Source: Tubulanus polymorphus (lineage: Eukaryota; Animalia; Nemertea). From it: 64,000 nucleotides of DNA. Made by a program: the position numbers and the translations under genes. Positions 5,027-41,049 of this stretch are shown here, in pieces (position 1 is the first letter of the stretch; every line of letters begins with the position of its first letter). A model generated the notes under the pieces. The model was not told the origin of the DNA. It did not search any database and saw only the letters and a list, made by a program, of their open reading frames with translations. Where the stretch lies: contig NC_134036.1 in NCBI RefSeq assembly GCF_964204645.1, forward strand, positions 8,744,230-8,808,229, read 5' to 3'.

Positions 5027-5279
5027 GTTACAAATTGTTGCTCAGAATAATAATAATTTCATAAACTAAGGTTCAAACATTCATATAAATGCTCATCATG
5101 ATGATGATTAAGAAACCTTTCTCGCATAAAAAAAATCATATTTACGTAGCTGAAAAAATAGATGTGACAAAAGGGACTAAAAATCTATCTAAATACTGTC
5201 TAAATCTAATACTGCTTAAATTTGTCAGCCAATTTCCAATTTGCAGTAATATTATGGTCACTAATATCCCTTTCTGACG

Positions 5280-9520: not shown

Positions 9521-9899
9521 ACTGAATTCTCGACAAGTTGTTGTGCCAGAAAGTTCTGCTAGTAGTTGGTGTGTGACTACTTTTTTGACCAATGGTGTTG
9601 ACGGGCTTGTTCATTTGGGTTGTCCTCAGCTTTCTCCTTTCTGAGGGTAATATAAGTTATAACAAGTTTTCTTATACGACCACACTCCTTCCTTATTTTC
9701 TTCTTCTTAGCGTAACATATCCCTCTGCTTTATCGCCCAAACCTCTTTTTGTACACTCTAACTTCAAAACCTTAGACTTATACACTAATTTGTACGTTCC
9801 TCACATTCCTGAACCATTTCCTCACCCGCTTCTAACCTTAACCTATTTGGTATTTTCAATACCCGCTACTTCCATTATACTCCGTCCTGATCCACGTTA

Positions 9900-12703: not shown

Positions 12704-12831
12704 TTAAAATTTGCGCATAACGAGTTTCGGAAATGAATTCTGTTCCTTGAGAAGAATAACGTTGACTTTTTCGAGGTAAAATGTTAGAATAATTTCTATA
12801 CGAGCACGTTATTTATTTACGCTGGTTTCAG

Positions 12832-20103: not shown

Positions 20104-20104
20104 C

Positions 20105-20134
20105 CTGAAAAATAGGGATAGCAAGAATCAGTAA
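20105..20134 (-). promoter_or_regulatory. Splice acceptor for a subgenomic env mRNA
   Basis: Minus strand reads TACTGAT (branch-point-like), TCTTGCTATCCCTATTTTTCAG|G ATG, one base before the env ATG. Confidence 0.6.
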
Positions 20135-20149
20135 TCTCGAAACCACGTA

Positions 20150-22358: not shown

Positions 22359-22360
22359 TT

Positions 22361-23153
22361 TATAATACATATTTTTATCAAAATTTGATTAACACGTTAG
22401 AATTCTTTTCATTATCTCGTTCTCTTTTGTTTCTTCTCTTTTAAATTTTAAGTATTCATCTAAATTACAACCATATGCAACTGTATGAATTCCATCATCT
22501 AAAATATATCTTTTATCATCAAATGGGTTTAGACTTATCTTTTCAATTTCTTCAATGAACATTTCATGATCTTCAGATCTTAAACATCTCATTTTATGTT
22601 TTCTAACTTCTTCATTGAATATACAATTGATGTAATCTTTGAAATGAATATTCTTTTCTACTACACTTTTGGTTATTCCTTTTAACTTTTTAGCTTCATG
22701 TTCTTTAGTTTTATATGAATACATTTTAGATCTAATACCGATGAACTCTATCATTTCTTCACCACCTAATTCATCTTTGAATTTACCGGGAACTTTGTAA
22801 TTATCATTGCTAAACAATTAATGATTTTTAGGATAATTACTAAAATCAAAATGATGTTTTAATGTTTTTAAATCATCGGTTATGTTATCAGTTTTAATCT
22901 TTAATATGTAACTGTCAGTATCAAAATATAATATTTCTATATGTTTTTCTCCAAAAAGTGGTTGTAAAACATTATAATAGAACTCATACATTAGTAATTT
23001 TGATAATTCTAAAACTGAAGCGCCAACATAGATTGGTTTATTAAATTTCATTGATGTTCTTCTCATCTTAACTGCAGCAAAATTTTCATCAAATATTCTG
23101 TTACCAATGAACTTAGGATATGTTTGTAAATGTCTTATCCTTTTACCATTACT
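22361..23153 (-). pseudogene. C-terminal pPolB fragment of a sibling Polinton copy
   Basis: Close but non-identical copy of ~36530-37320 (YFDTDS, GKFKDE, DDKR), with a nonsense codon at 22818. Confidence 0.93.
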
Positions 23154-23613
23154 AGTAATAGGGATAATAGGCTTTCAAGCCAAAGGTCGAACGGTCGAGC
23201 TCGTAAAAAATGAAAAACATAAAAATAATTACAATTTCTACTTGAATTACTCGCGAAACTCATAAAAATGAAAAATAAATTCTCACACGCTCGAATTTAT
23301 TTTTCATTTTATGAGTTTCACTCCTAATTCAAGTAGAAATTGTAATTATTTTTATGTTTTTCATTTTTACTCACCCGCCCGTTCAACCTTTAGCTTGAAA
23401 GCCTATTATCCCTATTACTCTTAAAATATTCACATAAATGAATAACATTTAAATCATTGAACTTCTAAAATCAATTTTAATAAAAAATATAGTATTAAAA
23501 TGGAAGCAAATAAGTACTACTGCCCAACATGTAATATCGATATAGATAAATCCCAAAAAGCAAGACACAATAAAACTAGAACACATTTAGAGAATAAATT
23601 GAAACTAGAGTAT
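23154..23613 (+). repeat. Left terminal inverted repeat; outer 266 bp (23154-23419) is itself a palindrome
   Basis: AGTAATAGGGATAATAGGCTTTCAAGC...GCTTGAAAGCCTATTATCCCTATTACT. 23400-23613 is the reverse complement of 40463-40675. Confidence 0.92.
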
Positions 23614-23760
23614 TCAGAACAGTTAACAAAAGGAAAGAAATTTATTGAATTATGGAACACTGATCCAAATAATGAACAATACGTTGAGGATACGATGTTT
23701 ATACTAGAAAATGATTCTATTTTAGCCTATATACATTCAATGTACAGAGCTATAGAATAA
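23500..23760 (+). CDS. Small zinc-finger ORF starting inside the TIR (shares its first ~38 aa with pPolB)
   Basis: MEANKYYCPTC...H...H matches the pPolB N-terminus; tail KKFIELWN..NEQYVE matches the HNH ORF tail. Confidence 0.55.
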   Translation: MEANKYYCPTCNIDIDKSQKARHNKTRTHLENKLKLEYSEQLTKGKKFIELWNTDPNNEQYVEDTMFILENDSILAYIHSMYRAIE

Positions 23761-24409
23761 ATCTATAAATTCACAGCTGTTACAGTTGTTACTATAACGA
23801 CGAGACATTATGACACGTCATAATCAGAAACGTGTAGAATATTCTAGAACCGGAACTAGATGACGTGGCATAATCAACGACGTGTTCATTCTAGAAATCA
23901 CCCCGGAAATGGACATACGCTGTAATATTGTGCTCAGGATATTCTATCTTTCGAAACGAAATTAGGAGTTTATAGTTTACAATTATAAATCTAAATGTAA
24001 GTACTGTTTGTTGTAGTTATTAAGGCTATTAAATACGAAACCTTTAGATATATTTAAGTGTATTTAGTATATATTTTAGATGGTTAGAGTTACCGCTAAT
24101 ATCTTTTAGATTAATAAAAAGTCATACGCATCAAGAAGCGATAGAGAAACTCAAGATACTCTTTCTGACTGAGGAATCAACAGCAATGGATATCGAACCA
24201 ATAGAATCACCAAAAGATCGAAGAAGAAATATAATAATTTCAAAAACATTAAGACTCCAATGATTAAGTTTAACATTTGTTAATGTAGTTAAATATTTAC
24301 CAGCAATTGAAAAAATGTTTGTTATTATAAATTGTATTTATAGAAATCAAATGATGTATTAGAAGAAATGACTGAACAACTTGTATAATATATTGTGTAA
24401 ATCTGATTT

Positions 24410-24750
24410 GTGAATTTTTATGTTCAGTCGTTTCTATTATGTTTAACGCATGCGCATTAATCAAAAACGATCCTATAAAAGCGGTTTTGCCTAGTGCGCA
24501 TGCGTTTGAATTTTCTATGTTCAGTTGTTTCTATTTTAAAGAATTTACAGAATGAATATATAATTATAATTAGCGCATGCGCATTAAGCAAAAACGCGCC
24601 TAATAGAGCGGTTTTGCCTAGTGCGAACACGTTTTGATATTTTATGTTGGTCGTTTCTATTTTACAGAATTTATAGAATGAATATATAATTAGGATTAAC
24701 GCATGCGCAGAAGCCAACTCGCTCTCACCCGAGCGTTTTTGCCCAGTGGT
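24410..24750. promoter_or_regulatory. ~130-bp imperfect tandem repeat with (G)CGCATGCG(C) palindromes (NRF-1-like sites)
   Basis: CGCATGCG at ~24447, ~24497, ~24574 and ~24700 in a gene-free segment. Confidence 0.45.
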
Positions 24751-24882
24751 ATTATTTAGATATCAAGGAATTGAAACTGACTTATCAAAAGCAGCGAGGA
24801 ATGAAAAAGGATAACGTTGGTCGAAGAAATGGAAGAGGATTATAAATTATTAACCAATTTAGTAAAAAAATACGTATAATAA

Positions 24883-25545
24883 ATGGAACCAGAACAACCA
24901 CAAATTATCAATATTACAAATAACACTGGCGTTATAAACATATATTACAAGAAGTGTTCTAAATGTGAATTAGATAAATCATTAACAGAATTTAGTAAGC
25001 GTAAGACTAGCAAAGATGGTTTTCAATATTACTGTAAAACTTGCATTAAACTATAAACCAAACAATATCGAGAAGATAATATAGAACATTATAATTATTA
25101 TATGACAAAATATATGAGAGAAAGATATCAAACAGATTTTAATTTTAAAATGAAACAATGTTTGAGATCTAAAGTATCAAAATTATTCAGTAAAGAAAAC
25201 CACTCAGTTACACTAGCATATTTATTGGATTGTTCAGATAAATTCTTAAAATCATGGATTATATATCAATTCGATGATAAAATGAATATAGATAATTATG
25301 GGGATTATTACCATATTGATCACGTGTTACCAATATCTAAATTTAACATGAATGATGAATACAATAAAAAACTTATTTGGAATTGGAAGAATCTAAGACC
25401 TTTAGAAAAGAAAGAAAATCAAATCAAATCTAATAAAATAGATTTACAGTTATATTTGAATCAACTGGAAAAAGTAAAAAAATTTATTGAATTATGGAAT
25501 TCAACACATAATGAACAATACGTTGAGTCTTTAATGAGTGGTTAA
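24883..25545 (+). pseudogene. HNH endonuclease with an N-terminal CxxC...CxxC zinc ribbon (giant-virus/phage type)
   Basis: KKCSKC...F......DG....CKTC; YHIDHVLPIS...NWKNLRPLEKKENQIKSNK. In-frame TAA at 25054. Confidence 0.8.
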
Positions 25546-25795
25546 AGAATAATAGATTTTAAATAAAAAGTATTTAAAAAACAATAACTTCAACTAGCTA
25601 GCGAATTCTATTATATTTTTAATATTTTCTTTTCAAAAAGAGAATACTTTATATTTTGAATAGATCCGAATAGAAATTCTTTAAATTCAAATAGCTAGTA
25701 TCAGTAGTCAATACTAGAGTTCTTTAACTTTAACTATCTAGTATCATTTGAAGAATACTTATAATATTTTTTTTTGCTTTTTTTCTCTAATATAA

Positions 25796-26401
25796 ATGTC
25801 AAAGAAATCGAATAAGAATAATATTAAAGTTGAAAAAACTTTGGAAGATTTAGGTCTAACAGATGATAATGATAATGTGGCAACTAAATGTGATAATAAA
25901 ATTGATAGTAATATTGATTATGAATACTATTTATATTGTAAGCATCATCTAGAACTATTGATTGCGAGTGGAAAAACTAAAGAGTTTATTGGTAAAACAA
26001 TAACTTTTCAAGAATTAGATAATATGAATAAAGAAAAAGTAATAAAATATTTTAAGATTTATGAAGAAGCTCGATTAGCTAGAATAAATGATTCTATTTC
26101 AGATGGTATTGTCAAATGTTATTCTAAGTTATGTAACCAGTTAATACCAATTGATGATGAAAATAAATTATATAATGATTTGAAAAATGACTATTTAGTT
26201 ATGACTGAATTACAAAAATGGGTCAGTTATGCTTCATTCCAATTAGGATCGGTTATGACGTTGATTTCTACTGGAGTTATAACATTTTCGAACATCAAGC
26301 CTATGGAATATAAATCAGGTAAGAACGAAACAGATGTACTACAACCAAACAGTGAAACAGAAAATGAATCAAAACAAAAATCAACTAAAATAAATGAGTG
26401 A
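25796..26401 (+). CDS. Polinton hypothetical protein, 201 aa
   Basis: Intact ORF with a TAAATG start, inside the element. Confidence 0.75.
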   Translation: MSKKSNKNNIKVEKTLEDLGLTDDNDNVATKCDNKIDSNIDYEYYLYCKHHLELLIASGKTKEFIGKTITFQELDNMNKEKVIKYFKIYEEARLARINDSISDGIVKCYSKLCNQLIPIDDENKLYNDLKNDYLVMTELQKWVSYASFQLGSVMTLISTGVITFSNIKPMEYKSGKNETDVLQPNSETENESKQKSTKINE

Positions 26402-26780
26402 TGGAGTTAAGAAAAAGGCTAGATCAGAGAAACAAATTAAATGGGCAAGAGAATTAGGTAAAAGATCATCAGAATTAAAAAAAGCTAAGAAATAGAAATT
26501 AACTGATATAAATGAATCACCTGATGATGCCGTACGGCACCCACACGGTGGTATTGATTCAAATAATAATCCATCTAATTCTTCTAATGCTGGAAGTAAT
26601 TATAAATTATATATTACAATTGGATTAGTAACAGTTATTATATTATCCGGTGTAATATATAAATCAAAATTCAAATCTGATGATAAATATGATTCCGATG
26701 TTGATAAACCTATTATACCAGAAAATAAGTCAAATCATAAAGCCATTGAAACTAAATCTAAATTATTATTAATGGATTAA
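26394..26780 (+). pseudogene. Basic N-terminus plus single-TM protein (possible core/membrane protein)
   Basis: MSDGVKKKARSEKQIKWARELGKRS...LYITIGLVTVIILSGVIY...IIIMD; in-frame TAG at 26493. Missed by the ORF track. Confidence 0.6.
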
Positions 26781-26786
26781 AATAAG

Positions 26787-27872
26787 ATGAAAAAAGAACA
26801 ATATTTAAGAGATTTATATTATAACCCAGAAAGTGAAGTATCATATTCTAACGTTTCAGAATTATGGAATAAAATTAAATCTGATAATAGCAATATAAAA
26901 TATAGTGAATTAAAATCATGGTTACAAAATCAACCCACATATCAAATTCATAAAAAGATGGATAAAAAATATTTAACAAGAAAAGTAATGGTTTCATATA
27001 TTGACCAACAATGGCAAGCTGATTTAATTGATATGAAAAACTTAGAAGAATACAACGAAGGATATTTTTGGATACTAAATGTTATAGATATATTCAGTAG
27101 ATACGCATGGAGTATCCCGATTAAAAATAAAACTGGTATAGAAGTTACAAATTCTTTCAAATTAATATTTAAAGAAGCTATCCCAGATAAAATACAATTT
27201 GATGAAGGTAAAGAATTTTATAACAAACATTTTAAAAAACTATTATCTGATAACGATGTAGAATATTTTTCAACACATTCAGATAAAAAAGCATCTGTTA
27301 TAGAAAGATTTAATAAAACATTGAAAACTAGAATGTGGAAATATTTCACCGCTAATGAAACATATAAATATATCGATGTGTTAGATGATTTAGTGAAAGG
27401 TTATAATAATTCTAAACATAATTCTATAAATATGAAACCTATACAAGCTAGAAAAGAAGAAAATTCAGAAATAGTTTGGAATAATTTATATGGTGCGTTT
27501 GTTACACATGATTTTGGAGAACCTAAATTTAAAATAGGACAACATGTTAGAATTTCTAAATATCGAAAAACATTTTATAAAGGTTATACCCCTAATTTTA
27601 CTGAAGAAATATTCAAAATTAAAAAGATAATATTAACTAAACCTTTTGTTTATAAATTGTTTGATTTAAAAGATGAAGAAATATTAGGTTATTTTTATGA
27701 ACAAGAATTATCATTAGTACCAAATCCAGATGAAATAGAATACAAAATAGAAAAGGTATTGAAAACAAAAACTCTTAAAGGTAAGAAATATTCTCTGGTG
27801 AAATATAAAGGATATGATGATAAATTTAATGAATGGATTTTATCTAGTAAAATTAAAAGAATAAATGAATAA
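26787..27872 (+). CDS. Retroviral-like (rve) integrase with C-terminal chromodomain
   Basis: WQADLIDM, QFDEGKEF, IERFNKTLK catalytic DDE; YKIEKVLK...VKYKGYDDKFNEWI. Confidence 0.96.
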   Translation: MKKEQYLRDLYYNPESEVSYSNVSELWNKIKSDNSNIKYSELKSWLQNQPTYQIHKKMDKKYLTRKVMVSYIDQQWQADLIDMKNLEEYNEGYFWILNVIDIFSRYAWSIPIKNKTGIEVTNSFKLIFKEAIPDKIQFDEGKEFYNKHFKKLLSDNDVEYFSTHSDKKASVIERFNKTLKTRMWKYFTANETYKYIDVLDDLVKGYNNSKHNSINMKPIQARKEENSEIVWNNLYGAFVTHDFGEPKFKIGQHVRISKYRKTFYKGYTPNFTEEIFKIKKIILTKPFVYKLFDLKDEEILGYFYEQELSLVPNPDEIEYKIEKVLKTKTLKGKKYSLVKYKGYDDKFNEWILSSKIKRINE

Positions 27873-28479
27873 AGATTTGTTTATATTTGAACCACATAAT
27901 ATGTTAGTTACGGGAGTTACAAATTGTGGTAAAACACACTTCATATTATATTTATTAGAAACTATTTATAAAAATCATTTCGATAATATAATATTATTCT
28001 GCCCAACTTATGAAATGAATGAAACGTATAATAGAGATATAGTTTTTAAAGATAAAAAGTTTATTATATTAAATTCTAAAACAGTGAAAGATAATTTAGA
28101 TAATTGTATAAAAATTGCATTAGATATTTATAAAGGATCTAATACATTATTTATTATCGATGATTGCGCAAATTTACATGATTCTAAAATTAGAGAAAGT
28201 GAGTTATGTTATTTAGCTTTCTCTGGTAGACATTTTGGGATAACAACATGGGTTTTAAATCAGAAATATAATTCAATTGTGAAAGATTTTAGAGAGAATA
28301 TAAGATTTCTAGTTTTATTTTATAACAAAGATAGAAAATCTATGCAACAATCATTGGAAGAAAATCAAATTATACCTCCTGAATTACATGATGAATATAT
28401 GAATAAATTAAAGAATAATAAAGGTTCCAAATTACTTATGAGATTACAATTTCCATATGAATATAAATTTATAAAATAA
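27865..28479 (+). CDS. A32/FtsK-like genome packaging ATPase
   Basis: Walker A GVTNCGKT, Walker B LFIIDD, GRH motif, LNQKY. Confidence 0.93.
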   Translation: MNKDLFIFEPHNMLVTGVTNCGKTHFILYLLETIYKNHFDNIILFCPTYEMNETYNRDIVFKDKKFIILNSKTVKDNLDNCIKIALDIYKGSNTLFIIDDCANLHDSKIRESELCYLAFSGRHFGITTWVLNQKYNSIVKDFRENIRFLVLFYNKDRKSMQQSLEENQIIPPELHDEYMNKLKNNKGSKLLMRLQFPYEYKFIK

Positions 28480-28494
28480 CTATTTGTATACCTA

Positions 28495-28650
28495 TGTATT
28501 AGATACCCTAATACCTAATACCCCATTAGATACCCTAATACCTAATACCCCATTAGATACCCTAATACCTGATACCCTAATACCTGATACCCTATTAGAT
28601 ACCCTAATACCTGATACATACCCTAATACCCTATTAGATACCTTAATACT
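28495..28650. repeat. Short tandem repeat (GATACCCTAATACCT-based units) between convergent genes
   Basis: Direct reading. Confidence 0.9.
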
Positions 28651-28700
28651 TAAAAACCCCTTTTTTATTTACTATTATTTTATACAATTTTCAACCTTTA

Positions 28701-29549
28701 TTACTTTTTGAGTGTTAGATAATCACTTTCTGAATCACTTTCACTATAATCACTTTCAGACCCTAACAATTTATTCAAATGCTCTACCGTATCTTCATAA
28801 ATAATTGGTTTATTATTTTTCACCTTTTTCACCTTTTTTACCAAATCATCAATAGTTGTTTCATTGTTATGCTTATTCATCCAATCAAATTTATTATTAT
28901 TTTCTACTTTAAGTTTTATAGAATCTTTATTATCAATATGCTTATCTGTAACTATATCACCATGTGGGTGCTGTATGGTATCATTTTCATTATCATCTTT
29001 ATTAGTGTTTGCTCCTAATATTTCATTTACAATATTTGATCCTAATATTTCATTAGCATCGGTTAAATCTAATTCATCTTTATTAGGTGTTGTTAATAAA
29101 AAATCTTCATATAATTCTTTACCATTTACTTTTTTATTTGAAACAAATTTTGTAACATATCTAAATGGGTGTTCTATAAATTCTCTTCAACCAACACGTT
29201 CTATAACATTAGTAATATGTGAATTTGTATTCATATGTTTATTCCAATTTGATGGAGCGTTTGAAAATTCACCGTTACAATAACCACAATAATTTCTATT
29301 TTCACTAACATCTAATATTATTTTATTATTAGATGTAGAAGGTATTACATTATTATCAATTACACTATTATTAACAACACCACTTTAATTATTATTACGT
29401 TCAATTAAATATTCTTTGTATTGATTTAATTCATTTAATAAAAATGTTCCAATAAATTCATTTATTCTTTTATAAGGTATTATATAATACAAATCATCAT
29501 TGATTTCTTTATCAGCTTTGATTCTTTCATATACTTTACCTCCTTCCAT
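28701..29549 (-). pseudogene. Disrupted ORF with a C2H2-like finger remnant
   Basis: TAAATG start MEGGKVYERIK...; later YCG..CNGEFSNAPSNWNKHMNTNSH; acidic SESDYSESD tail; stops and frameshifts. Confidence 0.5.
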
Positions 29550-29581
29550 TTATTATATATATTTTTATTAAAGTTAAAATT

Positions 29582-30829
29582 TTAATACATAACACTATCT
29601 AATTGTGAATTTACAATATTTAATTGCGCGTCAGATATAATATAAATGTGCATTTTAAAATTTTTGATTCCCTTTTTCTTTGTCATGAATAATTGTATTC
29701 CATCTTTAGTGTTTTGTAGTTTTTTTCCAGAACCATGTAATGAATTATCTTCAGTTGTTCTAAAATCTAACCATAATGCATATTTATTACCGGTATAATA
29801 ATCAATTTGATTAATGTTACAATCTTCAGATGATTTCACTTTTTCATTCATAAAATGTTTTTTAATTTCTACCCATTGATCAATCATTCTCATTCCTTGA
29901 CAAAATATTTTATTCGCTATTCCTTCGATAGTTATTTCTACTTTTGTTATTTCAGGATTATAATAATTGTCAACATTTATTGCGCCATTAGTATACGTTC
30001 CAATGGTAAAAAATATTAATATACCTTTAATAGATCTTCTAGGGAAGTTAATATTCTCATTAATTATTTCATCATTTGCATTAATAGTTACAGTTTTAAA
30101 TTTATCAATATAATCATATAATAATGAAAACCCTTGATTATATTTAGTTTGAATTATACTTGAAATATTTTCATCAGTTACTGTATCATATTCTAAACAT
30201 ATATTCGATAATTTATAACTCATATCTTTATTAACGCTAGATAATACAATTTCATTTACAGGAGCAAATGTTATCTCAAATATAATATCTTCTTGAATTG
30301 CGTATTTATATAAAGGTGCATTATTATTTATCAATTCAAAATCTAATGGAATTTTATATTTGCTTCCATATATACTTTTTATTAATTTATCTACATCATT
30401 AGTTAATATTGCGCTATTAGCTTCTGATCTTAATTTATTTTGGTTTTCTGATTGGATTCCTTGAAATATCATATTATTTCTATTTTCTTTTGTTAACCAT
30501 AAATCTTTATAATGCATAAATAAATTATAATCATCTAATGAGAAAACTGTTTCTGGACCAATCTTTATTGTTAACTTTTTAATCAAATATCTTCCAACAT
30601 TATCAACGACATAATTATTATTATTACCGATTACTTTTATATCGGCTGATAAATAAATACTGTTTGGAACATAAAAAGTATTTTGTGTTAATCTAGGAAT
30701 TCTAACATATAAAGTTTCATCAGGATTAATATTAGAAGGGTTATGAGTAATTATATGATGTGATCTTTCTGCTTTAATAGCATTAGATATTCTATGATTC
30801 TTCGAAGGACTTATATAACTCCCACTCAT
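29582..30829 (-). CDS. Major capsid protein (double jelly-roll, Polinton/adintovirus hexon-like)
   Basis: 415 aa beta-rich ORF: NPSNINPDETLYVRIP, NVGRYLIKKL, IPLDF, LSNICLEYD, ALWLDFR...LHGSG; position among structural genes. Confidence 0.82.
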   Translation of the reverse strand: MSGSYISPSKNHRISNAIKAERSHHIITHNPSNINPDETLYVRIPRLTQNTFYVPNSIYLSADIKVIGNNNNYVVDNVGRYLIKKLTIKIGPETVFSLDDYNLFMHYKDLWLTKENRNNMIFQGIQSENQNKLRSEANSAILTNDVDKLIKSIYGSKYKIPLDFELINNNAPLYKYAIQEDIIFEITFAPVNEIVLSSVNKDMSYKLSNICLEYDTVTDENISSIIQTKYNQGFSLLYDYIDKFKTVTINANDEIINENINFPRRSIKGILIFFTIGTYTNGAINVDNYYNPEITKVEITIEGIANKIFCQGMRMIDQWVEIKKHFMNEKVKSSEDCNINQIDYYTGNKYALWLDFRTTEDNSLHGSGKKLQNTKDGIQLFMTKKKGIKNFKMHIYIISDAQLNIVNSQLDSVMY

Positions 30830-30854
30830 TTATTTAACAAAAAAATTAATTATT

Positions 30855-30925
30855 TATTTTTTGATATCATGGTTTACTTGATATTTTTTGATATCATGGT
30901 TTACTTGATATTTTTTGATATCATA
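30855..30925. repeat. 27-bp tandem repeat overlapping the 3' end of the 529-aa gene
   Basis: TTTTTGATATCATGGTTTACTTGATAT, about 2.5 copies. Confidence 0.85.
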
Positions 30926-32490
30926 TTTACTAAACCAAAAATAATAGCACTTACAACTGTAATTAAAAATAAAATAATATGTTCAGCAGCAAAGTTAATA
31001 ATGTTTCCTGCAGATTTCAATATAAAACCAACAATTGAAGCAATAACTCCTGGTAATGCTGCAGCAGATTTTTTAGATAGTTCCCATAAATATTTTGCTA
31101 ATTTTTTTAAACCATCCTTAACTTTATCTTGTATAGAATTATTGCCTGGAGGTTTATCTGGTTTGTTAGGAGTGGGAGTAGGAGTAGATTTAAAAGCATT
31201 TGATATTGCTAAACCAATTGTTGTAAATAACATAGTTACAGCTGTTAGAATTGAAAGAATTGTTATTCCTTCTAATTTAAATAATAACTTTATTCTGTCT
31301 TTTAATGATATTTCAGAATTTGGTTTAATCAACAAATCTTTAAAAATAACTTTTAATCTATTTATATTATAATCATATGATTTTAATAATAATTTAATTT
31401 CTTCTTTTTGTAATTCTATGTTATATTCTAAATCATCAATTTCTTTTTCTAAATATGCATTTCTTTTTTTAAATTCAATTTCTTCAATAACTTTATTATC
31501 TCTATCTAATTTTAATTGTTCTATTTCTTTATTTTTATCAGTTCTATCTTTTTCTAAAAATCTAATTTTAATATCTCTTTTACTTTTTTCATGCGCAATT
31601 TTATCAGCTGATTCTTGCATACCTTTAATTTCTCTACGTGCTTGTTCAGGAAATGCTTCTAATTCATCATCAGTTAAATCAAATAATCCTTTTTCTAGTA
31701 AAGATTGTATTCGATTTATTCCAGTTTCAGTACCGGGCGTATCTAAAACACTAATCATATCTTCTTCAAATGAATTCATTGTATCCAGTAAGTTATCTAA
31801 ACGTTTTCCTAATTGTAATTGACTTGAATCATTATCAATTTGTTGAGTGTCTCTTCTCGATGTTTCGGGTGTTGAAGATCTTAATTTATCTCTATTCTCT
31901 TCCATTTCCGTTTCTGGATTATTATCGATTATTTCAAATAATTCATTAATTCTTTGTTTAAATTCTTTTCTATTATTATCCCTTTCTTCTTGTGTAACAT
32001 CAGTTATTTCATTACTATTACTTATTCTCTTAATTCTATCTGGTTCTAACTTAAGCAAAGTTGATTCTGCTAATATTATATTTTGAGTTTTATAAGAGAT
32101 GTTAATATAATAATCATCTTTCAATTTATAATAATATTCACCATCTAAATATTTTAAATCTTTTACTAAAAGTCTGGCACCTCTGTAATTTTTATTATAT
32201 CCAGAATCTTTAAATACATCTTGAAACTTATATATAAATCCAATATTTTCTAAATCTTCCTTTTTTAAACCTTGATTTTCATTTTCAGGATTTATTCTCG
32301 ATCTAGTTCTTCTATCAAATTCATCTGTTGATGGGGCTTTAGAACCACTATCTGCTAAATTAGAATTATATGCTGATTCATCATCATTATCAATATTAGT
32401 TTTTGCATCATTATAATCATCATCAATATATCCTTCATTATTATTTCCCATGTCATCCAATGGAATATCTTCTCCACCTTCTACATCCAT
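30901..32490 (-). CDS. Acidic/coiled-coil protein with C-terminal amphipathic and hydrophobic helices (candidate membrane-active virion protein)
   Basis: EGITILSILTA...LPGVIASIVGFIL...HIILFL pattern recalled from animal Polintons of this group. Confidence 0.7.
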   Translation of the reverse strand: MDVEGGEDIPLDDMGNNNEGYIDDDYNDAKTNIDNDDESAYNSNLADSGSKAPSTDEFDRRTRSRINPENENQGLKKEDLENIGFIYKFQDVFKDSGYNKNYRGARLLVKDLKYLDGEYYYKLKDDYYINISYKTQNIILAESTLLKLEPDRIKRISNSNEITDVTQEERDNNRKEFKQRINELFEIIDNNPETEMEENRDKLRSSTPETSRRDTQQIDNDSSQLQLGKRLDNLLDTMNSFEEDMISVLDTPGTETGINRIQSLLEKGLFDLTDDELEAFPEQARREIKGMQESADKIAHEKSKRDIKIRFLEKDRTDKNKEIEQLKLDRDNKVIEEIEFKKRNAYLEKEIDDLEYNIELQKEEIKLLLKSYDYNINRLKVIFKDLLIKPNSEISLKDRIKLLFKLEGITILSILTAVTMLFTTIGLAISNAFKSTPTPTPNKPDKPPGNNSIQDKVKDGLKKLAKYLWELSKKSAAALPGVIASIVGFILKSAGNIINFAAEHIILFLITVVSAIIFGLVNMISKNIK

Positions 32491-32506
32491 TTACATAATA
32501 AAAAAA

Positions 32507-33895
32507 TTAAAATTTAAAATATAATATTCCTCCGATTACAATTCCTATACAAGTTATAGCTAATTTAGTATTTTCATGGGATTTATTATCATCATTTAGT
32601 TTAATTATATCATGTTGAATTTTATCAGTTTTTATATTTTCTGATGTATTGTAATCTTTTATTTTAGAATCATTATCCAATTTAATATTCTTAGTTTTAG
32701 TTTCAGTTGATTGAATATGTTTTTTATTTTTTTCACCTTCCATTAATTTTGGAGCAGTAATAATCTTTTTATTTATATCATTCAATCCAAATGAATTATT
32801 TATTGTTGCAGTTTTAATTAGATTATTATAACCAATTATATTTCCCATCTTTAATACTAAATCATTAGAAATAATTAATAGATTAGGGCCTATACAATAA
32901 TTAAGTCTTACATGAGATTTATCTAAATAATTTTGATATCTTATAATGTTTTCTGGAATCGATCTATTTTTATCATTATGTATGGAATCTTCAAATAAAA
33001 CTTTAAATTGTTTTTGTGTATCGAATGATGTATTCAAATTTCCAATTATTGGGGATCTTGTTTCAACTTGCGCACCTAAAATACAAATTAAATAAGTTCT
33101 AATAGATTGATTTATTCTTTCAATACCTGATTTAGTAAAACCTTCACTATTTTCTAAAATAAAATAAAGCCAACCATTATTGTTTTCTTGTTTTAAATTA
33201 TCATAAAATTTTGGTAATTTATTGAAATTTAATGTTTCTAAATCTTTTGTTTCTATTTTACCATAACCTAATTTATTATTATAGATATTATAAAAACTAT
33301 TAGATGGTATGGGAAGTGCACAATATTCTGCAATCTTTTTAGGGCATGGAAGTGATCTTATTGTTCCAATTTTTGTTCTAAAATCAGAATTATTTATATC
33401 TATATTAAATTCATTGCAAATTTTATAAAACTTTGATAAATTAATATTATTATCTAATTCTTTGAAATACCTAGATCCTGGTAAAGCGCACTCTAATTCA
33501 TTTAATATTATTCTGATTTGAAAGTATGTATGAAATCTAAATAAACTTTGAATTAATTTATATTTAGAATTATTTAAATGATCATTCCAGCTAATTCCAC
33601 ATCCTGTTGTTGCACAATAAACAGCAAAATTTAATTGGTTCTGCCAATACTTCATATTAGATTTTAATAACCATTGTTTTTCATCTTTCAATTTTTTAAA
33701 ATTAATTAAATATATATGAAATATATTTTCCATCTTTGCATTAAAATTATTAGTTTCAGTAACATAAATATATAAATCAATTAATGAATTTAAAACTTCA
33801 TTTCTATATGTAATATCTTTATTAAAATCTATTGCTGGAATATTATATTTAATTGATTTATTATATTGGAAAGCTTTTGGAAAACTATCTACCAT
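32507..33895 (-). CDS. Polinton hypothetical protein, 462 aa, C-terminal TM anchor
   Basis: Intact ORF; WQNQLNFAVYCATTGCGIS; ends LAITCIGIVIGGILYFKF. Confidence 0.75.
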   Translation of the reverse strand: MVDSFPKAFQYNKSIKYNIPAIDFNKDITYRNEVLNSLIDLYIYVTETNNFNAKMENIFHIYLINFKKLKDEKQWLLKSNMKYWQNQLNFAVYCATTGCGISWNDHLNNSKYKLIQSLFRFHTYFQIRIILNELECALPGSRYFKELDNNINLSKFYKICNEFNIDINNSDFRTKIGTIRSLPCPKKIAEYCALPIPSNSFYNIYNNKLGYGKIETKDLETLNFNKLPKFYDNLKQENNNGWLYFILENSEGFTKSGIERINQSIRTYLICILGAQVETRSPIIGNLNTSFDTQKQFKVLFEDSIHNDKNRSIPENIIRYQNYLDKSHVRLNYCIGPNLLIISNDLVLKMGNIIGYNNLIKTATINNSFGLNDINKKIITAPKLMEGEKNKKHIQSTETKTKNIKLDNDSKIKDYNTSENIKTDKIQHDIIKLNDDNKSHENTKLAITCIGIVIGGILYFKF

Positions 33896-33911
33896 TTATA
33901 TAATTAACAAA

Positions 33912-34346
33912 TTAATAATTTATTAATTCTTTTAATAATTTATCTTGTTCTTCAACTGTTATATGACCATTTAAACTTATTATATAATCTAGTGTGTTCT
34001 TTAATTTATTAATTTCTTTTATATTAGTTTTAATTTTTTCTTTATTACTTTTTATATTTAATTTTGAACTTATACCAGTTAAAACACTTGATGATAATCC
34101 TAATACACCAATTGATATAGCTAAAGGTGTTAATGGGCTGAATATTGCTAGAAATGTTATTACAGAACTAATTGTAACCGAACCACTTATAATTAAATAA
34201 TATATAATTTTACTTTTTAAATATTTTTTCTTTTTTATCTTTAAGTCACTTTCAAATTCTAATATTTGTTTTTCTAAATATGTTTTTAATTTAGTTTTAT
34301 TTATATCATGAGGAATAATATCAATACTATCAACTTTATCTTCCAT
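33912..34346 (-). CDS. Two-TM coiled-coil protein, 144 aa
   Basis: Intact ORF, central hydrophobic hairpin, TAAATG start. Confidence 0.7.
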   Translation of the reverse strand: MEDKVDSIDIIPHDINKTKLKTYLEKQILEFESDLKIKKKKYLKSKIIYYLIISGSVTISSVITFLAIFSPLTPLAISIGVLGLSSSVLTGISSKLNIKSNKEKIKTNIKEINKLKNTLDYIISLNGHITVEEQDKLLKELINY

Positions 34347-34365
34347 TTATTTAGAATAAAAATTA

Positions 34366-34788
34366 CTAATTAGTAAACTTATAAGCAACAAATATAACAA
34401 TAACAGTTCCACCTAAAATCCATATTATTTCATATTTCTGTTGTTCTTTACTCGGGGTATAATAATCTGATAATTTAGGTTTGTATAGATGTAATTTTTC
34501 TTTATTTGTTACTGCGTTATATAAACTCATTGCATCATCAACTGATTGAAAATCTCTATGTGAAATCTTCTGATCATATAATTCTTTATTGATGTAATCC
34601 ATATAGTTTTGCCTCTTTTCTCTATATTCTTCTGCAGCTTTATTGTATTTCTCTAACGCTAAGTTATGTCTTCTTTGTTCTCCTAATGAACTATTTTTAT
34701 CAATATGTTTAAATAAATAACCACCACCAGTAAATGCTAAAGCGTTAACAATTGCCGATCCTATAATAGTTATAATTGCAGAAGCCAT
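34366..34788 (-). CDS. Membrane-associated protein, 140 aa
   Basis: VNALAFTGGGYLF...EQRRHNLALEK and a C-terminal TM segment. Confidence 0.72.
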   Translation of the reverse strand: MASAIITIIGSAIVNALAFTGGGYLFKHIDKNSSLGEQRRHNLALEKYNKAAEEYREKRQNYMDYINKELYDQKISHRDFQSVDDAMSLYNAVTNKEKLHLYKPKLSDYYTPSKEQQKYEIIWILGGTVIVIFVAYKFTN

Positions 34789-34813
34789 TTATTTAGCAAA
34801 AAAAATTACACAT

Positions 34814-35035
34814 TTATATGGGAGGAATATATTTTTGTTTTTCCAAATAATCAATAGTTAAATTAGATAAAGTAACTGCTAATGTTAATTTCAAAATATC
34901 ATTGATATCAAATCTATCAACATTTACACTTCCCATTTTGAATACTTTTTTTAATACCATTGAATAACCAACCGTTCCAACTGATAGTAATGCGCCATTA
35001 TATAATCCAGTTATTATCCACTTATTATCACTCAT
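34814..35035 (-). CDS. Small hydrophobic protein, 73 aa
   Basis: Tightly packed ORF with a TAAATG start. Confidence 0.68.
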   Translation of the reverse strand: MSDNKWIITGLYNGALLSVGTVGYSMVLKKVFKMGSVNVDRFDINDILKLTLAVTLSNLTIDYLEKQKYIPPI

Positions 35036-35377
35036 TTATTTATCAAAAAAATTACTATCATCAAAATATTTAGTTATCTTATTTATGATTAATTCAACAT
35101 TTATTTTATTACTAGTTTTATGATTATCATATATTTTGGATAATATGTTTTTGATATCATCAATAATTCCATCTTCATTTAATTCGTAATATTCTAAAGG
35201 TGATTTAATTAAATCAATTACTTTTTCTATATTATACTTTTCTTTATCAATCATTGATGCATTGTTAAATGATTTACTTTTTATATCAGTAATTACGTCA
35301 TTTAGTTTAATTCTCATTTCTTTACCATGTTTAAAATCAAACCCAAAACATATACTCGGTCCAACAGTTATATTCAT
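35036..35377 (-). CDS. Hypothetical protein, 113 aa
   Basis: Intact ORF, TAAATG start, abuts the next gene. Confidence 0.62.
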   Translation of the reverse strand: MNITVGPSICFGFDFKHGKEMRIKLNDVITDIKSKSFNNASMIDKEKYNIEKVIDLIKSPLEYYELNEDGIIDDIKNILSKIYDNHKTSNKINVELIINKITKYFDDSNFFDK

Positions 35378-35393
35378 TTATATAATGAAAAAA

Positions 35394-36155
35394 TTACTCT
35401 TTACATCTTATAACTAATTCATATATCACAGGAAAGTTATTTAAATCAATTAAGTATCCATTATGATTTCTAATTTCTAATCTAAAATTATTAAAATGAG
35501 GAATGCATGGTTTGAAATCACATTCTGTTAAATTATAATTTATTTGCGTTCCAAATTCTTTAACATTCTTCAATGGTAAAATGTTTAGTAAACCAGAATT
35601 ACAAGTTATATCTTTAGTTGCTTCGAATGTTTTTGTAGGATCGATTAAATTGCAATAAATATAAAAATGTGTGTAAGGTATTAAGTTTGGTGTAGTAGCG
35701 TCAATATTTGTAAAAGATCTATCTGGAATAATTCCTAACAGTTTAGCTATAGGTTTTTTTACCATAAATTTATGTTTTTCACTATTAGACAACCTTATCT
35801 TTATTCTATCAGAACTCTCACTTTTTAAAAATCTAATACTAAACCCAGAACTACTACCTAATTTGTGCCAAGCTTTTCTATTAATTTCTTGTGCTAATGT
35901 ATCTAAATTATATAACCCCGGTTTTAAATATATATAGACCCATTCATTTTTATTTTTATTAAAAACTAAAAAGGCTCTATGTTCAATAGTTTTATTCGAT
36001 ATATTATAAAAAGAATTACATAAACTTATATTTACTAATTTTAAATCTACACAATTCTTAAATTCTCTATCTAATTGTACTAATAAATTATGTGATTTAT
36101 AATTTGTAAGTTTTCTAGAATCTACAAATATTCTGTATTCTTTTAATTCCACCAT
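35394..36155 (-). CDS. Minor capsid protein (penton-like, single jelly-roll)
   Basis: LKLVNISLCNSFYNIS...LKPGLYNLDTL...IYCNLID...LEIRNHNGYLIDLNNFPVIYEL pattern typical of Polinton/virophage pentons. Confidence 0.75.
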   Translation of the reverse strand: MVELKEYRIFVDSRKLTNYKSHNLLVQLDREFKNCVDLKLVNISLCNSFYNISNKTIEHRAFLVFNKNKNEWVYIYLKPGLYNLDTLAQEINRKAWHKLGSSSGFSIRFLKSESSDRIKIRLSNSEKHKFMVKKPIAKLLGIIPDRSFTNIDATTPNLIPYTHFYIYCNLIDPTKTFEATKDITCNSGLLNILPLKNVKEFGTQINYNLTECDFKPCIPHFNNFRLEIRNHNGYLIDLNNFPVIYELVIRCKE

Positions 36156-36172
36156 TTATTTTACATATTTTC

Positions 36173-36526
36173 TTATTCGAAATCTATTTCATGGTGCCCC
36201 TTTTCATTCTTACCTTTGTATACGAAATAGAAATCTCCAGAACATAATTCTTCTAAATCTTCACTTGATAATCTATGAAATCTATCCGGTAAATATGTTC
36301 TGAATTTATGTGTATTTCCTTTTAATCCTTCATATTCTAAGTGTATAACTAATTTATCTCCATAGTTATTAGTAACTGTAACAATATTTGTAATTAGATA
36401 TTTCTTATGGATTGTTAATTCTGTTAACTTTTTGAATTTATATTCTACAGATTTTACATTTGTTATATCTTTTATTCTATCTAGAAATAATTTGTTGTTC
36501 TCACTGTGTGCTAGTTTACTCTCCAT
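36173..36526 (-). CDS. Small beta-rich protein, possible OB-fold ssDNA-binding protein
   Basis: FKKLTEL...YLI......NYGDKLVIHL...TYLPDRF, directly downstream of pPolB. Function inferred. Confidence 0.55.
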   Translation of the reverse strand: MESKLAHSENNKLFLDRIKDITNVKSVEYKFKKLTELTIHKKYLITNIVTVTNNYGDKLVIHLEYEGLKGNTHKFRTYLPDRFHRLSSEDLEELCSGDFYFVYKGKNEKGHHEIDFE

Positions 36527-36555
36527 TTTAATAACATATTTTTATTAAAATTTGA

Positions 36556-39500
36556 TTAACACGTTAGAATTCTTTTCATTATCTCGTTCTCTTTTGTTTC
36601 TTCTCTTTTAAATTTTAAGTATTCATCTAAATTACAACCATAAGCAACTGTATGAATTCCATCATCTAATATATATCGTTTATCATCAAATGGGTTTAGA
36701 CTTATCTTTTCAATTTCTTCAATAAACATTTCATGATCTTCAGATCTTAAACATCTCATCTTATGTTTTCTAACTTCTTCATTGAATATACAATCGATGT
36801 AATCTTTGAAATGAATATTCTTTTCTACTACACTTTTGGTTATTCCTTTTAACTTTTTAGCTTCATGAGTTTTGGTTTTATATGAATACATTTTAGATCT
36901 AATACCAATGAACTCTATCATTTCTTCACCACCTAATTCATCTTTGAATTTACCGGGAACTTTTTTATTATCATTGCTAAACAATTCATGATTTTTAGGA
37001 TAATTACTAAAATCAAAATGGTGTTTTAATGTTTTTAAATCATCAGTTATGTTATCAGTTTTTATCTTTAATATGTAAGAATCTGTATCAAAGTATAGTA
37101 TTTCTATGTGTTTTTCCCCAAAATGAGGTTGTAATATATTATAATAGAATTCATACATTAGGAATTTTGATAATTCTAAAACTGCAGCTCCAACATAAAT
37201 CGGTTTGTTAAATTTCATACTTGTTCTTTTCATTTTAACTGCTGCTAAATTTTCATCAAATATTCTATTACCTATAAACTTAGGATACGATTGTAAATGC
37301 CTTATCCTTTTACCATTACTAACTAACTCAATATCATTTCTATTTCTAATATTTTCACAAGTCTTACCATAGAATGCATTATTCATTAACTTAAAAAAAT
37401 CTTTTTCAAAATCAGTTTTAGATTTAGTTCTCTGTGTAGTATTAAAATCTATATATTTTTCTAACCATTTAGATTGACTGAATGAAATATATCTATGTAC
37501 TTTTTTTAATATCATTCCTTGTCTCAAATAAAACTTCAACATTCTATAATGTACTACATAATTATATTTATCTTCTTGAGTTACCATTAACTTTTCAGTA
37601 TGAATATGATTATCGGGTTTAATTCTTTTTTGATAATTTGATAATTCTTCATGTTTAACAGTTTTATGTTCGGGACAATATGCTAGATTTCTAGATTTGA
37701 ATTTAATATTTTCAGGGTATTCTAAATCTACAACAAAGAAGTAACCAGTATCTGAATCATCTGCAATATCTAGAATTCTTTTCTTCCAATCAAATTTATC
37801 AATTTGTAAAACTTCAGTTATTTCAAACATCCCATAAGGTTGTGGTTCCATCATTGCCCAACCATAAAGATTATTTGCATCTATGTATAATAATTTATAT
37901 CCAGGATTATCATTTACATTGAAATATCTATCACCCAATACACCTGAAACACCTCCTCTTATAGATTTTTCAAATAATAGTAATTGATCTATATTTGTTA
38001 ACAAATCCATTTTTATATCTGTAAATTTTAATCCACAATCCCATGTTAATCCTGGTGATGAATAACAATGACAAGGATCAATATTGAAATATTTTAGGTT
38101 TACATCTCTAAACCTTTCGAATATATCGGTTAATAATAATACATCTGATTTTAAATATAAATCTACTAATTGCCCATGATTTTCTATTTTGAAATGATTC
38201 CAAATATTCAATGTTCTATTATAGACTTCATCTTTAACATATTCATTTTTTAATTCATCATAAAATTGTTCTTTCAATAATTCAGTTATTTTAAAATCAT
38301 TATGATTTTTATAGAAAGAATATGGAATTGCACCTTTATATCTCATTAATTTAAAATCATCATTATTTGGGTAATATTCTTTTAATATCTTCAATTCATC
38401 ATCAACTAATGATTTTGATAAGTTATCTAATGAACTATTTAAAAATCTATATGAATCTATAAATCTTAGACAACCAAATTGGAATGATATATAATTCTCA
38501 GATGTTTTAGCTAACATTCTAAATTTATAAGTTGGTATTTTATCTTTTGATCTATTTGAATTTAATATTTCTATTTCATTATTGATTTCTTCTATTTTAT
38601 GACATAGCTGTTTGATAAATAAATGTGCATCATATCCTGATAGATTATGAAATATAACTGGTACAAAGTTAATTTTCTTAGCTTGTAAGTTACAATTCTC
38701 ATGTGCAGCGCCTCTAAACTTTCCATTCAAATGATCATGGTCCCTTACTTTTTTATCTTTATAATTAAATATCTTTTCACAATAATAACATTTATCTGCA
38801 AACTCAAATTCTTCTTTATCTTCTTCTGTCATAATTATTTCTATATTTTTATTCAACTTTTCATTAAATTTTATTTCATATTCAATTAATAAGTCACAAA
38901 AATGATTGATAACATTTTCATTTCTGTAATTATAATATTCACTTTCAATTAGTTCTGGATAATTAGATTTAATATATAACCCGAAAGCTGCAGCTGATTG
39001 ATGAATCTTTTTAATAGTATTTGTTTTTGGTGGTTCTTCTGAATAATCACTTTCATTAGAATTTAATTTCTTTCTTTTATAATATATATCTTTTCTATCT
39101 TTATCTGTTAATTCAAAATCTCCATATATTACAAATGGTACTTTATTTTTGTAATCATATTTTTTGAATTCTAATATTTTATCTTTTTCATTTGGTAAAA
39201 CTAATTTACAATAATCATGATTATCACATAATTGTTTATGATTTAATAATGTACTTTCATTACTAAATTTATGTAAACATTTTCAACATAGATATATTTT
39301 ATTATGGTGATCACTTTCTGTTCTAAAAAATAAATCTATTTGTTTAATCCACATATAATGATTCTCATAATATAGTATATCTATAACATCATTTGAATCA
39401 TAATCTTTTGATAGATATAAAGGTTCTAATGTATAATGTTTTATGTTGTTACCTTTTGTATTTGGTAATTTGATTAAATCAAATACATTTATCTTTATAT

Positions 39501-40575
39501 TATTATCTCTTTCTATTTTTGGGATGTTTTTAATTCTAACAGGATACTTATCTATCTTATAATTACTTTCAAATGGTTTATAATGAGTTAATCTAAAACT
39601 ATGTTGTTTATAATCTTCAACTGGGTGTAAGCAACTTATAATTGTCCATAGAAAACATTTATCATCTTCATTTTGTACATTTATTACAGCATTAGTTTTA
39701 AATGGTAGTTTAATATAACTTGATGCTTCAATATTTGGTTCTTTATAATATGATACATTATTTTCATCAATTGGTTTTGATTTAGTTAACTTATTATATT
39801 TTGTGTTATAAACATGTAAAGTTATAAATATTATCTCATCAAATATTAAACCAGATCCTTCAAAATATTTCTCTTCTATTTTAGTTTTTATTTCATTATA
39901 ACATTTATTTAATTTATCATCTATATGTTGTTTAGATATAATATGTTGTGAATGAGAATTTATATTATATATTGGTTTATCTTCAGATTTTATAAACTTT
40001 ACTTTAACTGATATACTAATTTTAGGATATTCAACATCTGTAATTATTTTTATTATTTCTTTCATATTTTCTAAATGTTTTTTATTTTCTTCTAATGTTT
40101 TTCCTTTATGAAATTTAAACTCGATAGCTGCTGGACCAATATCACTTTTAAATGCTTCGGTTATTTCTATATCTTTTTTATTATCTAATGAATTAATATA
40201 ATTTCTTACATCTTCCATGTATGGTCTTTTATTGTTTAATTTATTTTTTATGCTTTTAATTGTCTTCTGTTTCTTATCGTTATCATTATCAAAATAATCT
40301 TCACATAAAATATCATTATTCTTATTTCTAATATGACTTATAGATTTTAAATGTTCTTTATAATATCTTTTATCACTGAATGATTGATTACATGTATCAC
40401 ATTTATATGTTTCTTTTTCATTCTTTAATTCTTCTAATTTAGTTTCTAATATATCATCTTTATATTCTAGTTTCAATTTATTCTCTAAATGTGTTTTAGT
40501 TTTATTGTGTCTTGCTTTTTGGGATTTATCGATATTGATATTACATGTTGGACAGTAGTACTTATTTGCTTCCAT
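36556..40575 (-). pseudogene. Protein-primed family B DNA polymerase (~1339 codons), single in-frame TGA at 39283-39285
   Basis: Exo YGDFE, FHNLSGYD, YLKSDV; pol YIDANNLYG, KLMNNAFYGKT, YFDTDS; EndoVII-like CYYC...DHDH...H..CN; N-terminal zinc fingers. The frame is continuous across both listed ORFs. Confidence 0.95.
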
Positions 40576-41049
40576 TTTAATACTAAATTTTTTATTAAAA
40601 TTGATTTTAGAAGTTCAATGATTTAAATGTTATTCATTTATATGAATATTTTAAGAGTAATAGGGGTAATGGGCTTTCGGGTTAAAGGTTGAATGGTCGA
40701 GTTCATTAAAAACATATATTAAAAGTAATTTAAAACTATAATATATTTTCATAACCGTGTGTATTTCAGTTGAATAATAGAATAATTATTATCATTTGAA
40801 TATATTTGATTATATGAATTTGTGTATTGTAAATAAATCAATTGGTCGCGGAGCGGAGCGGTAGCGAAGCAGAGCGACCAATTGATTTAATACAATATGC
40901 TTTTTAAATTATTGATTTCTTAGAATAAATATTTAGTTTTAATATAAAATACACACGGTTATGAAAATATATTATAGTTTTTAATTACTTTTAATGTTTT
41001 GTTTTTTAATGAGCTCGACCGTTCGACCTTTGAACTGAAAGCCCATTAC
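40463..41049 (-). repeat. Right terminal inverted repeat; outer part (40666-41049) is a ~385-bp imperfect palindrome
   Basis: GTAATGGGCTTTC...GAAAGCCCATTAC; inner stems AAAACTATAATATATTTTCATAACCGTGTGTATTT and AAATCAATTGGTCGC with their complements. Confidence 0.9.

Follow-up and report, generated by a model that had tools for sequence, protein, structure and literature searches.

The sequence analysed here, called the window, is a stretch of 64,000 nucleotides (nt) from the nemertean Tubulanus polymorphus (contig NC_134036.1, positions 8,744,230 to 8,808,229), and it contains an integrated Polinton (Maverick) that belongs to a diverged multi-copy family (Table 1). A preliminary description of the same DNA had called this element far more AT-rich than its surroundings, and its GC content is indeed 24.0%, against 39.6% and 41.7% in the two flanks. 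Because pPolB, an integrase of the rve family and terminal inverted repeats (TIRs) are all present, the element is a Polinton under the polB, rve and TIR definition quoted in one recent study (PMC11296320). The pPolB aligns over 1311 residues, at 73% identity, with an uninterrupted relative of 1319 amino acids (aa), P0216. Catalytic motifs of the integrase were located in the sequence, and the best folds that Foldseek returned for the predicted capsid model were the capsids of Paramecium bursaria chlorella virus 1 and iridoviruses (E 5e-17). The family of the 253-aa protein, a penton candidate, has no significant PDB or Pfam match, and similarity searches with the 462-aa protein gave no usable match. 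Among the open reading frames (ORFs) of the window there was no match to the adenain/vUlp1 protease family. Pfam and NCBIfam scans of these ORFs detected no capping enzyme or RNA polymerase family above cut-off, which bears out the earlier statement that no RNA polymerase is encoded; several conserved ORFs match no family.

Table 1 Features of the Polinton and of the adjoining fragment, in window coordinates
Feature	Position	Strand	Remarks
Fragment of a second copy, pPolB 3' end	22357..23153	-	93% identity over 799 nt; adjoins left end of element
Integrated Polinton/Maverick element	23154..41049		17.9 kb
Left terminal palindrome	23154..23424		About 270 nt; two inverted terminal copies around an AT-rich stem; z -26
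TIR, left arm	23364..23618	+	255 nt, 92%; holds the A-type promoter and first codons of pPolB
HNH-like gene	24883..25545	+	Weak HNH_4 match; A-type TAAATG start; internal stop at 25054
201-aa conserved ORF	25796..26401	+	T-type TAAATG start
Small conserved gene (26394 gene)	26394..26780	+	TAAATG start; one internal stop
rve integrase with chromodomain	26787..27872	+	Pfam rve PF00665, E 8e-9, 36.2 bits, above cut-off; TAAGATG start
A32-like packaging ATPase	27865..28479	+	Pfam Pox_A32, E 6e-12; TAAATG start overlaps 3' end of integrase
Accessory gene with zinc finger (29549 gene)	28698..29549	-	A-type TAAATG start; two internal stops
Major capsid protein (double jelly-roll)	29582..30829	-	Predicted model with local distance difference score (pLDDT) of 88; T-type start
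529-aa conserved ORF	30901..32490	-	T-type TAAATG start
462-aa conserved ORF	32507..33895	-	TAAATG start; no known family
Four small ORFs (113, 73, 140, 144 aa)	33912..35377	-	T-type TAAATG start on each
253-aa conserved ORF, penton of the preliminary description	35394..36155	-	A-type TAAATG start; family in 27 loci
117-aa ORF	36173..36526	-	A-type TAAAATG start; homologue in locus L003
pPolB	36556..40575	-	Pfam DNA_pol_B_2 PF03175, E 4e-16, plus Endonuclease_7; A-type promoter
TIR, right arm	40457..40711	-	255 nt, 92%
Right terminal palindrome	40666..41049		About 385 nt; z -19; inner stem unlike the left one

Nearly all genes of the element begin at the same short sequence, as the preliminary description had noticed. 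The start codon lies within TAAATG (13 genes) or TAAAATG (2 genes) in 15 of the 16 distinct genes, or at 16 of 17 starts if the TIR duplicate of the pPolB start is included. The same strings are found at 57 of 689 other ATGs of the element (Fisher P = 5e-16) and at 52 of 487 control ATGs, each the first after a stop codon (P = 3e-14). When each 30-nt upstream region was shuffled 20,000 times, a mean of 2.1 genes and a maximum of 9 carried the motif. A T stands twelve bases before the ATG in 14 of the 16 genes (shuffle mean of 6.9, with 14 reached in 2 of 20,000 shuffles). The pattern TTTT-N8-TAAATG matches the 64-kb window seven times, always at a gene start (1.3 expected), and a looser pattern has 13 matches within the element, 11 of them gene starts, and 2 in 45 kb of flank; both patterns were derived from the window starts themselves. 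Judged from the sequence, this bipartite signal of fixed spacing (T tract, 8 nt, TAAATG) is a real and conserved promoter-like signature. Poxvirus early, mimivirus AAAATTGA, Cafeteria roenbergensis virus (CroV) TCTA and baculovirus TAAG motifs showed no fixed position upstream of the window genes. The upstream sequences quoted in the preliminary description were all found at the genes that it named, and the exception that it singled out, a TAAGATG start on the integrase, is present; however, the integrases of the related loci L001, L036 and L113 start at TAAATG, and the exception is therefore not a trait of the family.

To place the signal among relatives, 83 loci were collected by capsid alignment (the best 80 of 183 metagenome matches and 3 from genome bins), and the motif was scored at conserved gene families in 83 of the 84 loci, window included. 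The motif is distributed in an all-or-none manner: of the 51 loci in which three or more genes could be scored, 40 lack it and 11 have it at 67–100% of their genes. Below 40% GC it occurs in 60 of 68 genes from 18 loci, against 0 of 58 genes from 22 other loci, and because those 22 are equally AT-rich the motif is not an artefact of AT content. Above 40% GC it was found in L008 only (2 of 3 genes) and in 0 of 226 genes of the remainder. On the capsid tree the motif occupies a clade of 15 rows round the window (Shimodaira–Hasegawa-like approximate likelihood ratio (SH-aLRT) support of 99), the pair L036 and L075, and L073, with motif-less rows interspersed; L014, within the motif clade, has it in 0 of 1 scored genes. 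It also appears at 6 of 6 genes of L113, a Polinton of 38% GC that was found by its pPolB and has a different gene set (0 of 10 in L111 and 0 of 1 in L112). Given the tree pattern and L113, the motif is not accounted for by AT content or by one recent common ancestor. The retention of the motif in L036, the capsid of which is only 37% identical, suggests lasting selection.

Relatives of the capsid and ATPase were absent from IMG/VR, and the pPolB had no match in the phage collection. The P0045 cluster comprises capsid homologues of 55% identity, annotated as hypothetical Bartonella proteins on short contigs, and probably reflects contamination from an animal host or vector. L003, a close relative of the element, carries at 10340–10981 a deoxynucleoside kinase gene (PF01712, E 2e-31) with a T-type TAAATG start. 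Such kinases supply nucleotides and are often encoded by large DNA viruses; among the 38 matches to the L003 kinase there was no named poxvirus homologue. The integrase of L113 (2740–4251) has about 200 extra N-terminal residues that look protease-like by eye and match no family. In several relatives, inverted repeats lie just beyond the 3' end of the ATPase gene.

The motif could in principle have no promoter role and arise because the stop codon or poly(A) signal of an upstream gene overlaps the start. In the motif lineages (106 ORFs, near-duplicate loci included, of which 84 have TAA at their start), 34 of the 84 starts read AATAAATG, which contains AATAAA; AATAAA lies no more than 30 nt from the stop of several window genes, and the 73-aa gene starts immediately after the stop of the 113-aa gene. 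Packing of this kind nevertheless fails at divergently oriented starts, 14 of 16 of which carry the motif, and only 4 of the 84 TAA serve as the stop of an abutting upstream gene. The base before TAAATG varies in L036 and L113 (CTAAATG, GTAAATG), and the 58 motif-less genes come from relatives that are just as AT-rich. Overlap also leaves unexplained the fixed T at position -9, present at 87% of the 84 starts compared with 34% of 177 TAAATG strings that are not starts (T at -10 is found at 71% of starts). We regard packing as a highly improbable origin of the signal, largely refuted by the divergent starts and the AT-rich relatives without it.

A further property of the starts concerns translation. 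The Kozak rule places a purine at -3. In two families whose starts are pinned by homology, the capsid and the 140-aa protein, position -3 is a purine at 56 of 57 starts from motif-less relatives (17 of 17 in AT-rich loci); of 21 starts from the motif lineages, 20 have T there and 17 keep G at +4. Because T at -3 partly defines the motif group, the informative figure is the 56 of 57, and the contrast shows that a Kozak purine is the norm in this family. The loss of the purine makes sense if the T is absent from the mRNA, as a poly(A)-leader mechanism would allow: vaccinia polymerase slips on three A residues and so produces a 5' poly(A) leader (PMC5595341, PMC6211774). Within coding strands, AATAAA is as frequent in the motif lineages as synonymous shuffles predict (195 versus 199 expected; window, 64 versus 60.5) and mildly avoided in AT-rich motif-less relatives (75 versus 93, z = -2.5), a contrast that is weak evidence for transcription by an enzyme other than RNA polymerase II (Pol II).

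The upstream tract exists in an A form and a T form, and we compared both with vaccinia promoters, the geometry of which was taken from later descriptions (PMC11980589, PMC12917281). Across 87 promoters from 17 loci (near-duplicates L002, L010 and L013 and the motif-less L014 excluded), positions -12 to -10 before TAA read AAA in 13 and TTT in 37 (expected, 2.7 and 23.9; reached in 0 of 20,000 shuffles). Of five offsets used as controls, one also gave P = 0.008. Another 18 of the 87 are of intermediate type (ATT or AAT). The two forms share a T at -9 before TAA (73 of 87 promoters; 6 of 7 A-type and 8 of 8 T-type starts in the window), and the A-type has its A run at -10 to -15. In some slots the tract type is constant, being A in 3 of 3 for the 29549 slot (L001 and L005 included) and T in 4 of 4 and 5 of 5 for the 529-aa and 73-aa genes; the capsid tract is mostly T (12 of 14). 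Most genes, among them the penton-like, 117-aa, ATPase and HNH genes, switch type from one relative to another. In descriptions of vaccinia late promoters, TAAAT(G) overlaps the start codon, and the tenth nucleotide upstream is a conserved T that stands among less conserved Ts (PMC11980589). The window starts resemble them in both respects, the T being within one base of the described position. Intermediate promoters, by these accounts, lack the T (PMC11980589) and have a 12-bp spacer to an AT-rich core (PMC12917281), whereas the A-type starts keep the T and have their A run 10–15 nt before TAA rather than beyond such a spacer. The shared T at -9 and the shared spacing thus bring the A-type closer to a late variant than to an intermediate promoter. 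The preliminary description had proposed two promoter classes, with the A-tract class equated with vaccinia intermediate promoters and a two-phase programme of transcription. The bimodal A/T distribution stands, but with the shared geometry, the 18 intermediate cases and the switching the two classes are only partly supported, and neither the equation with intermediate promoters nor the two-phase programme is supported. On sequence grounds, a single late-type promoter with A-tract and T-tract variants is more likely than two temporal classes.

Several known systems share parts of this architecture. With Polintons and Mavericks, including the adintoviruses as described in PMC8502044, the element has in common pPolB, rve, the A32 ATPase, the double jelly-roll capsid, TIRs and multi-copy integration; it differs in its pox-late-like starts, its long palindromic ends and the absence of a detected adenain/vUlp1. 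Adenain was the marker used to collect the adintovirus set of Starrett et al. (PMC8502044), and as no protease family matched, we do not file the element in that set. Promoters are not mentioned in the main text of that paper or of PMC11131425. Mavirus and the endogenous mavirus-like elements (EMALEs) of Cafeteria are likewise integrated, carry rve and pPolB and have one motif upstream of their genes, which differs between EMALE types (PMC8547959). Provirophages of the mavirus type share the late promoter of their helper: the motif is the late TCTA of CroV, and helper and reactivation were shown experimentally (PMC8547959), whereas in the window the motif is TAAATG, the host is an animal and the helper is a putative one. 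Entomopoxvirus-associated polinton-like viruses (PLVs; Barth et al. 2024, PMC11296320) are small Preplasmiviricota elements tied to animal poxviruses; they come from occlusion bodies, have an adenovirus-type protease and have either a tyrosine recombinase or no integrase, and the main text that describes them does not mention promoters, motifs or transcription. Our literature search, which covered mainly journals open without subscription, found no paper on poxvirus-type promoters in animal Polintons. The pGKL elements of yeast are not known to have a capsid or an integrase. They are likewise linear elements with pPolB, TAAAN initiators and 5' poly(A) leaders made by slippage but, unlike the window element, have their own polymerase and capping enzyme and an early-type upstream element (PMC6211774).

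Animal Polintons may be autonomous viruses, transposons or satellites. Given the motif, its spacing and restriction to particular lineages, the gene content and the multi-copy integration, we think it moderately likely, and more so than any alternative considered, that a helper virus transcribes the element from its poxvirus-late-type promoters, and that the family is a provirophage-like parasite, a satellite, of that helper. A poxvirus-style signal together with no detectable RNA polymerase gene makes borrowed transcription machinery likely, and TAAA is described as being read by the poxvirus polymerase itself (PMC12917281). According to this proposal, a large DNA virus infecting the same cell would supply the RNA polymerase that reads the signal, transcription would start on the AAA of TAAATG, and the T at -3 would give way to a 5' poly(A) leader generated by slippage. 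All genes would switch on once the post-replicative factors of the helper are available; replication of the genome would then fall to pPolB and its packaging to the capsid protein and ATPase, and new chromosomal copies would be seeded by the integrase. The all-or-none, lineage-specific promoter makes the satellite idea testable. The host should harbour a helper virus, and TAAATG starts with loss of the -3 purine offer a simple genomic marker for sorting Polintons according to their probable lifestyle. Should the idea be correct, animal germ lines would join protists and algae, where the provirophage strategy of the mavirus type has been shown so far.

A number of results weigh against a poxvirus-like helper, in addition to the overlap with AATAAATG described above. 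Two motif scans of IMG/VR found no locus with TAAATG at most of its starts and gave what appear to be chance matches: 27 A-type matches had none with more than two such starts, and the best of 34 T-type matches had 4 of 9, 4 of 9, 4 of 11 and 1 of 2. No poxvirus polymerase subunit or pox-specific family was detected among the window ORFs or the 22 accessory ORFs of relatives, the sole pox-related family being the A32 ATPase, which all Polintons carry. On L127, a giant-virus-like contig that encodes PCNA and a P9 minor-capsid domain, 4 of 9 starts are TAAATG, so the start motif alone is not specific to poxviruses, and yeast linear plasmids use TAAAN initiators with a polymerase of their own (PMC6211774). 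The sister clade L016 and L031 has the same T-tract geometry with TATA. Many coral polintoviruses are reported to be expressed in ordinary host samples (PMC11131425), and a family of thousands of contigs would need repeated helper infection of germ-line cells. The capsid tree (59 rows, capsids of at least 330 aa) came from a quick search with SH-aLRT support and no bootstrap. Avoidance of TTTTTNT was dropped as a test: the string is depleted (0.51), but T runs are scarce in all groups, and the figure therefore carries no information.

The sister loci L016 and L031 (49% and 47% GC) lack TAAATG, and TATA lies within 20 nt of 14 of their 21 starts (shuffle mean of 2.6), usually as TATA(G/T)A preceded at about 10 nt by a T tract, and at a variable distance from the ATG. 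TATA is also enriched in AT-rich motif-less loci (29 of 48, against 17.5 in shuffles) and is at shuffle level in two GC-rich groups (10 of 70 and 8 of 96). The late promoter of African swine fever virus is described as TATTT plus TATATA (PMC5294985), and TATATA is reported in the transpoviron of a pacmanvirus (PMC11788076). The bipartite motif of L016 and L031 resembles this asfarvirus promoter and may mark a second type of helper. The TATA lineages fit tuning to different helpers, as among EMALE types (PMC8547959), but fit an ancestral promoter of the element as well. We hold only tentatively the wider idea that this branch of animal Polintons consists of provirophages of pox-like (TAAATG) and asfar-like (TATA(G/T)A) helpers; the promoters would then be traces left by cytoplasmic large DNA viruses of invertebrates that are yet to be discovered, and the integrated copies a heritable antiviral reservoir.

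On the ancestral alternative, the signal would be a promoter of the element itself, read in the nucleus by host Pol II that an element factor redirects, and its likeness to poxviruses would be convergence or shared ancestry; in a variant, the polymerase of a companion plasmid-like element would read it. The T tract about 10 nt before TATA in L016 and L031 suggests an architecture that the element lineage may have inherited from its ancestor, and the conserved 462-, 529- and 201-aa ORFs, which have no known family, might include such a factor. Those core ORFs are, however, also present in the GC-rich relatives that have neither motif, and the TAAATG motif recurs in L113 with a different gene set. 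Initiation at TAAAN without a helper virus in the yeast virus-like elements, the partial use of TAAATG by the giant-virus-like contig and the account that phycodnaviruses mostly use the host polymerase (PMC5294985) are all compatible with an own promoter, but Pol II transcripts would sit poorly with the missing -3 purine and with a density of about 5 AATAAA per kb in the window coding strand. Overall, we consider a promoter of this kind rather unlikely.

A possible host-polymerase element lies within the window, where the non-coding region 24436–24748 contains four CGCATGCG palindromes (0.2 expected in the window) and one TATA-box-like site, again in keeping with Pol II. The palindrome resembles an NRF1 site. 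The region also holds about 2.5 copies of a 126-nt repeat. In run X4, one of the four runs introduced below, 24.0–25.3 kb is about 100-fold deeper than the core, which suggests a separate repeat family.

The window copy is itself likely to be defective, judging by an in-frame stop in pPolB (39283–39285) and a clipped right end; the HNH gene and the 26394 gene (one stop) and the 29549 gene (two) are interrupted as well. The contigs that cover the family come from four runs (X1–X4) of one organism and at most two samples in one study. In X1, 21,729 contigs aligned, at identities from below 90% to above 99%, and the copies are thus many and diverged. Past 41050 the summed contig depth, which is not copy number, drops 13-, 11- and 9-fold in X1–X3 and rises in X4. 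These features raise the possibility that the promoters were once read by a helper and that the family now spreads or persists without one. Nonsense stops in four genes, the clipped end, the range of copy identities and the failure of the IMG/VR motif scans to find a helper would all fit a relic. Every break found, however, is a single in-frame stop, 15 of 16 starts still have the motif, a relative of 73% identity has a pPolB without interruption, and L036 keeps the motif at 37% capsid identity. We accordingly judge a relic quite improbable, and current dependence on a helper virus continues to be the reading that we prefer.

Both ends of the element are covered by contigs across the family and form long predicted hairpins with common outer arms and differing inner stems, each end consisting of two inverted copies of the terminus. 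The outer end of the right palindrome is about ten terminal bases shorter than its inner copy. Matches between the ends and relative loci were confined to short AT-rich stretches of promoter. Polinton target-site duplications are usually 6 bp. None was seen at the junctions here, where the right end is clipped and the left adjoins the fragment of a second copy; such a duplication is not part of the polB, rve and TIR definition (PMC11296320). Terminal palindromes have been reported in Halocafeteria virophages and one PLV subtype, mostly with replicases other than pPolB, together with a hairpin-priming model (10.64898/2026.07.28.741278).

Minor features of the element include an 86-aa chimeric ORF (23500–23760), which fuses the TIR-derived N terminus of pPolB to a copy of the HNH C terminus, and a degenerate tandem array of 27-nt period (28498–28650) between the convergent ATPase and 29549 genes. 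The accessory zinc-finger protein, in its L005 version, had one homologue, Atlas matches all below 0.9 and no significant PDB match, and its single-sequence model was unusable (pLDDT 39.5). The 144-aa ORF (33912–34346) has weak similarity to SLATT two-transmembrane proteins (NCBIfam, E 5e-5, under the cut-off); SLATT genes of polisuviruses are described as possible antiviral effectors (10.64898/2026.10.13.758929). CpG observed/expected is 0.51 in the element core and about 1.06–1.09 in the flanks. Directly beside the fragment of the second Polinton copy lies a gypsy retroelement (17700–22300) whose integrase bears a chromodomain and whose envelope gene is baculovirus-F-like (E 6e-13). This envelope and a weak PNMA-like gag match of the flanking gypsy elements are in line with an animal host. 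Farther to the left, 2209–12707 is a large fold-back element with 2.8-kb inverted repeats of 97% identity, each holding 28 copies of a 49-nt unit.

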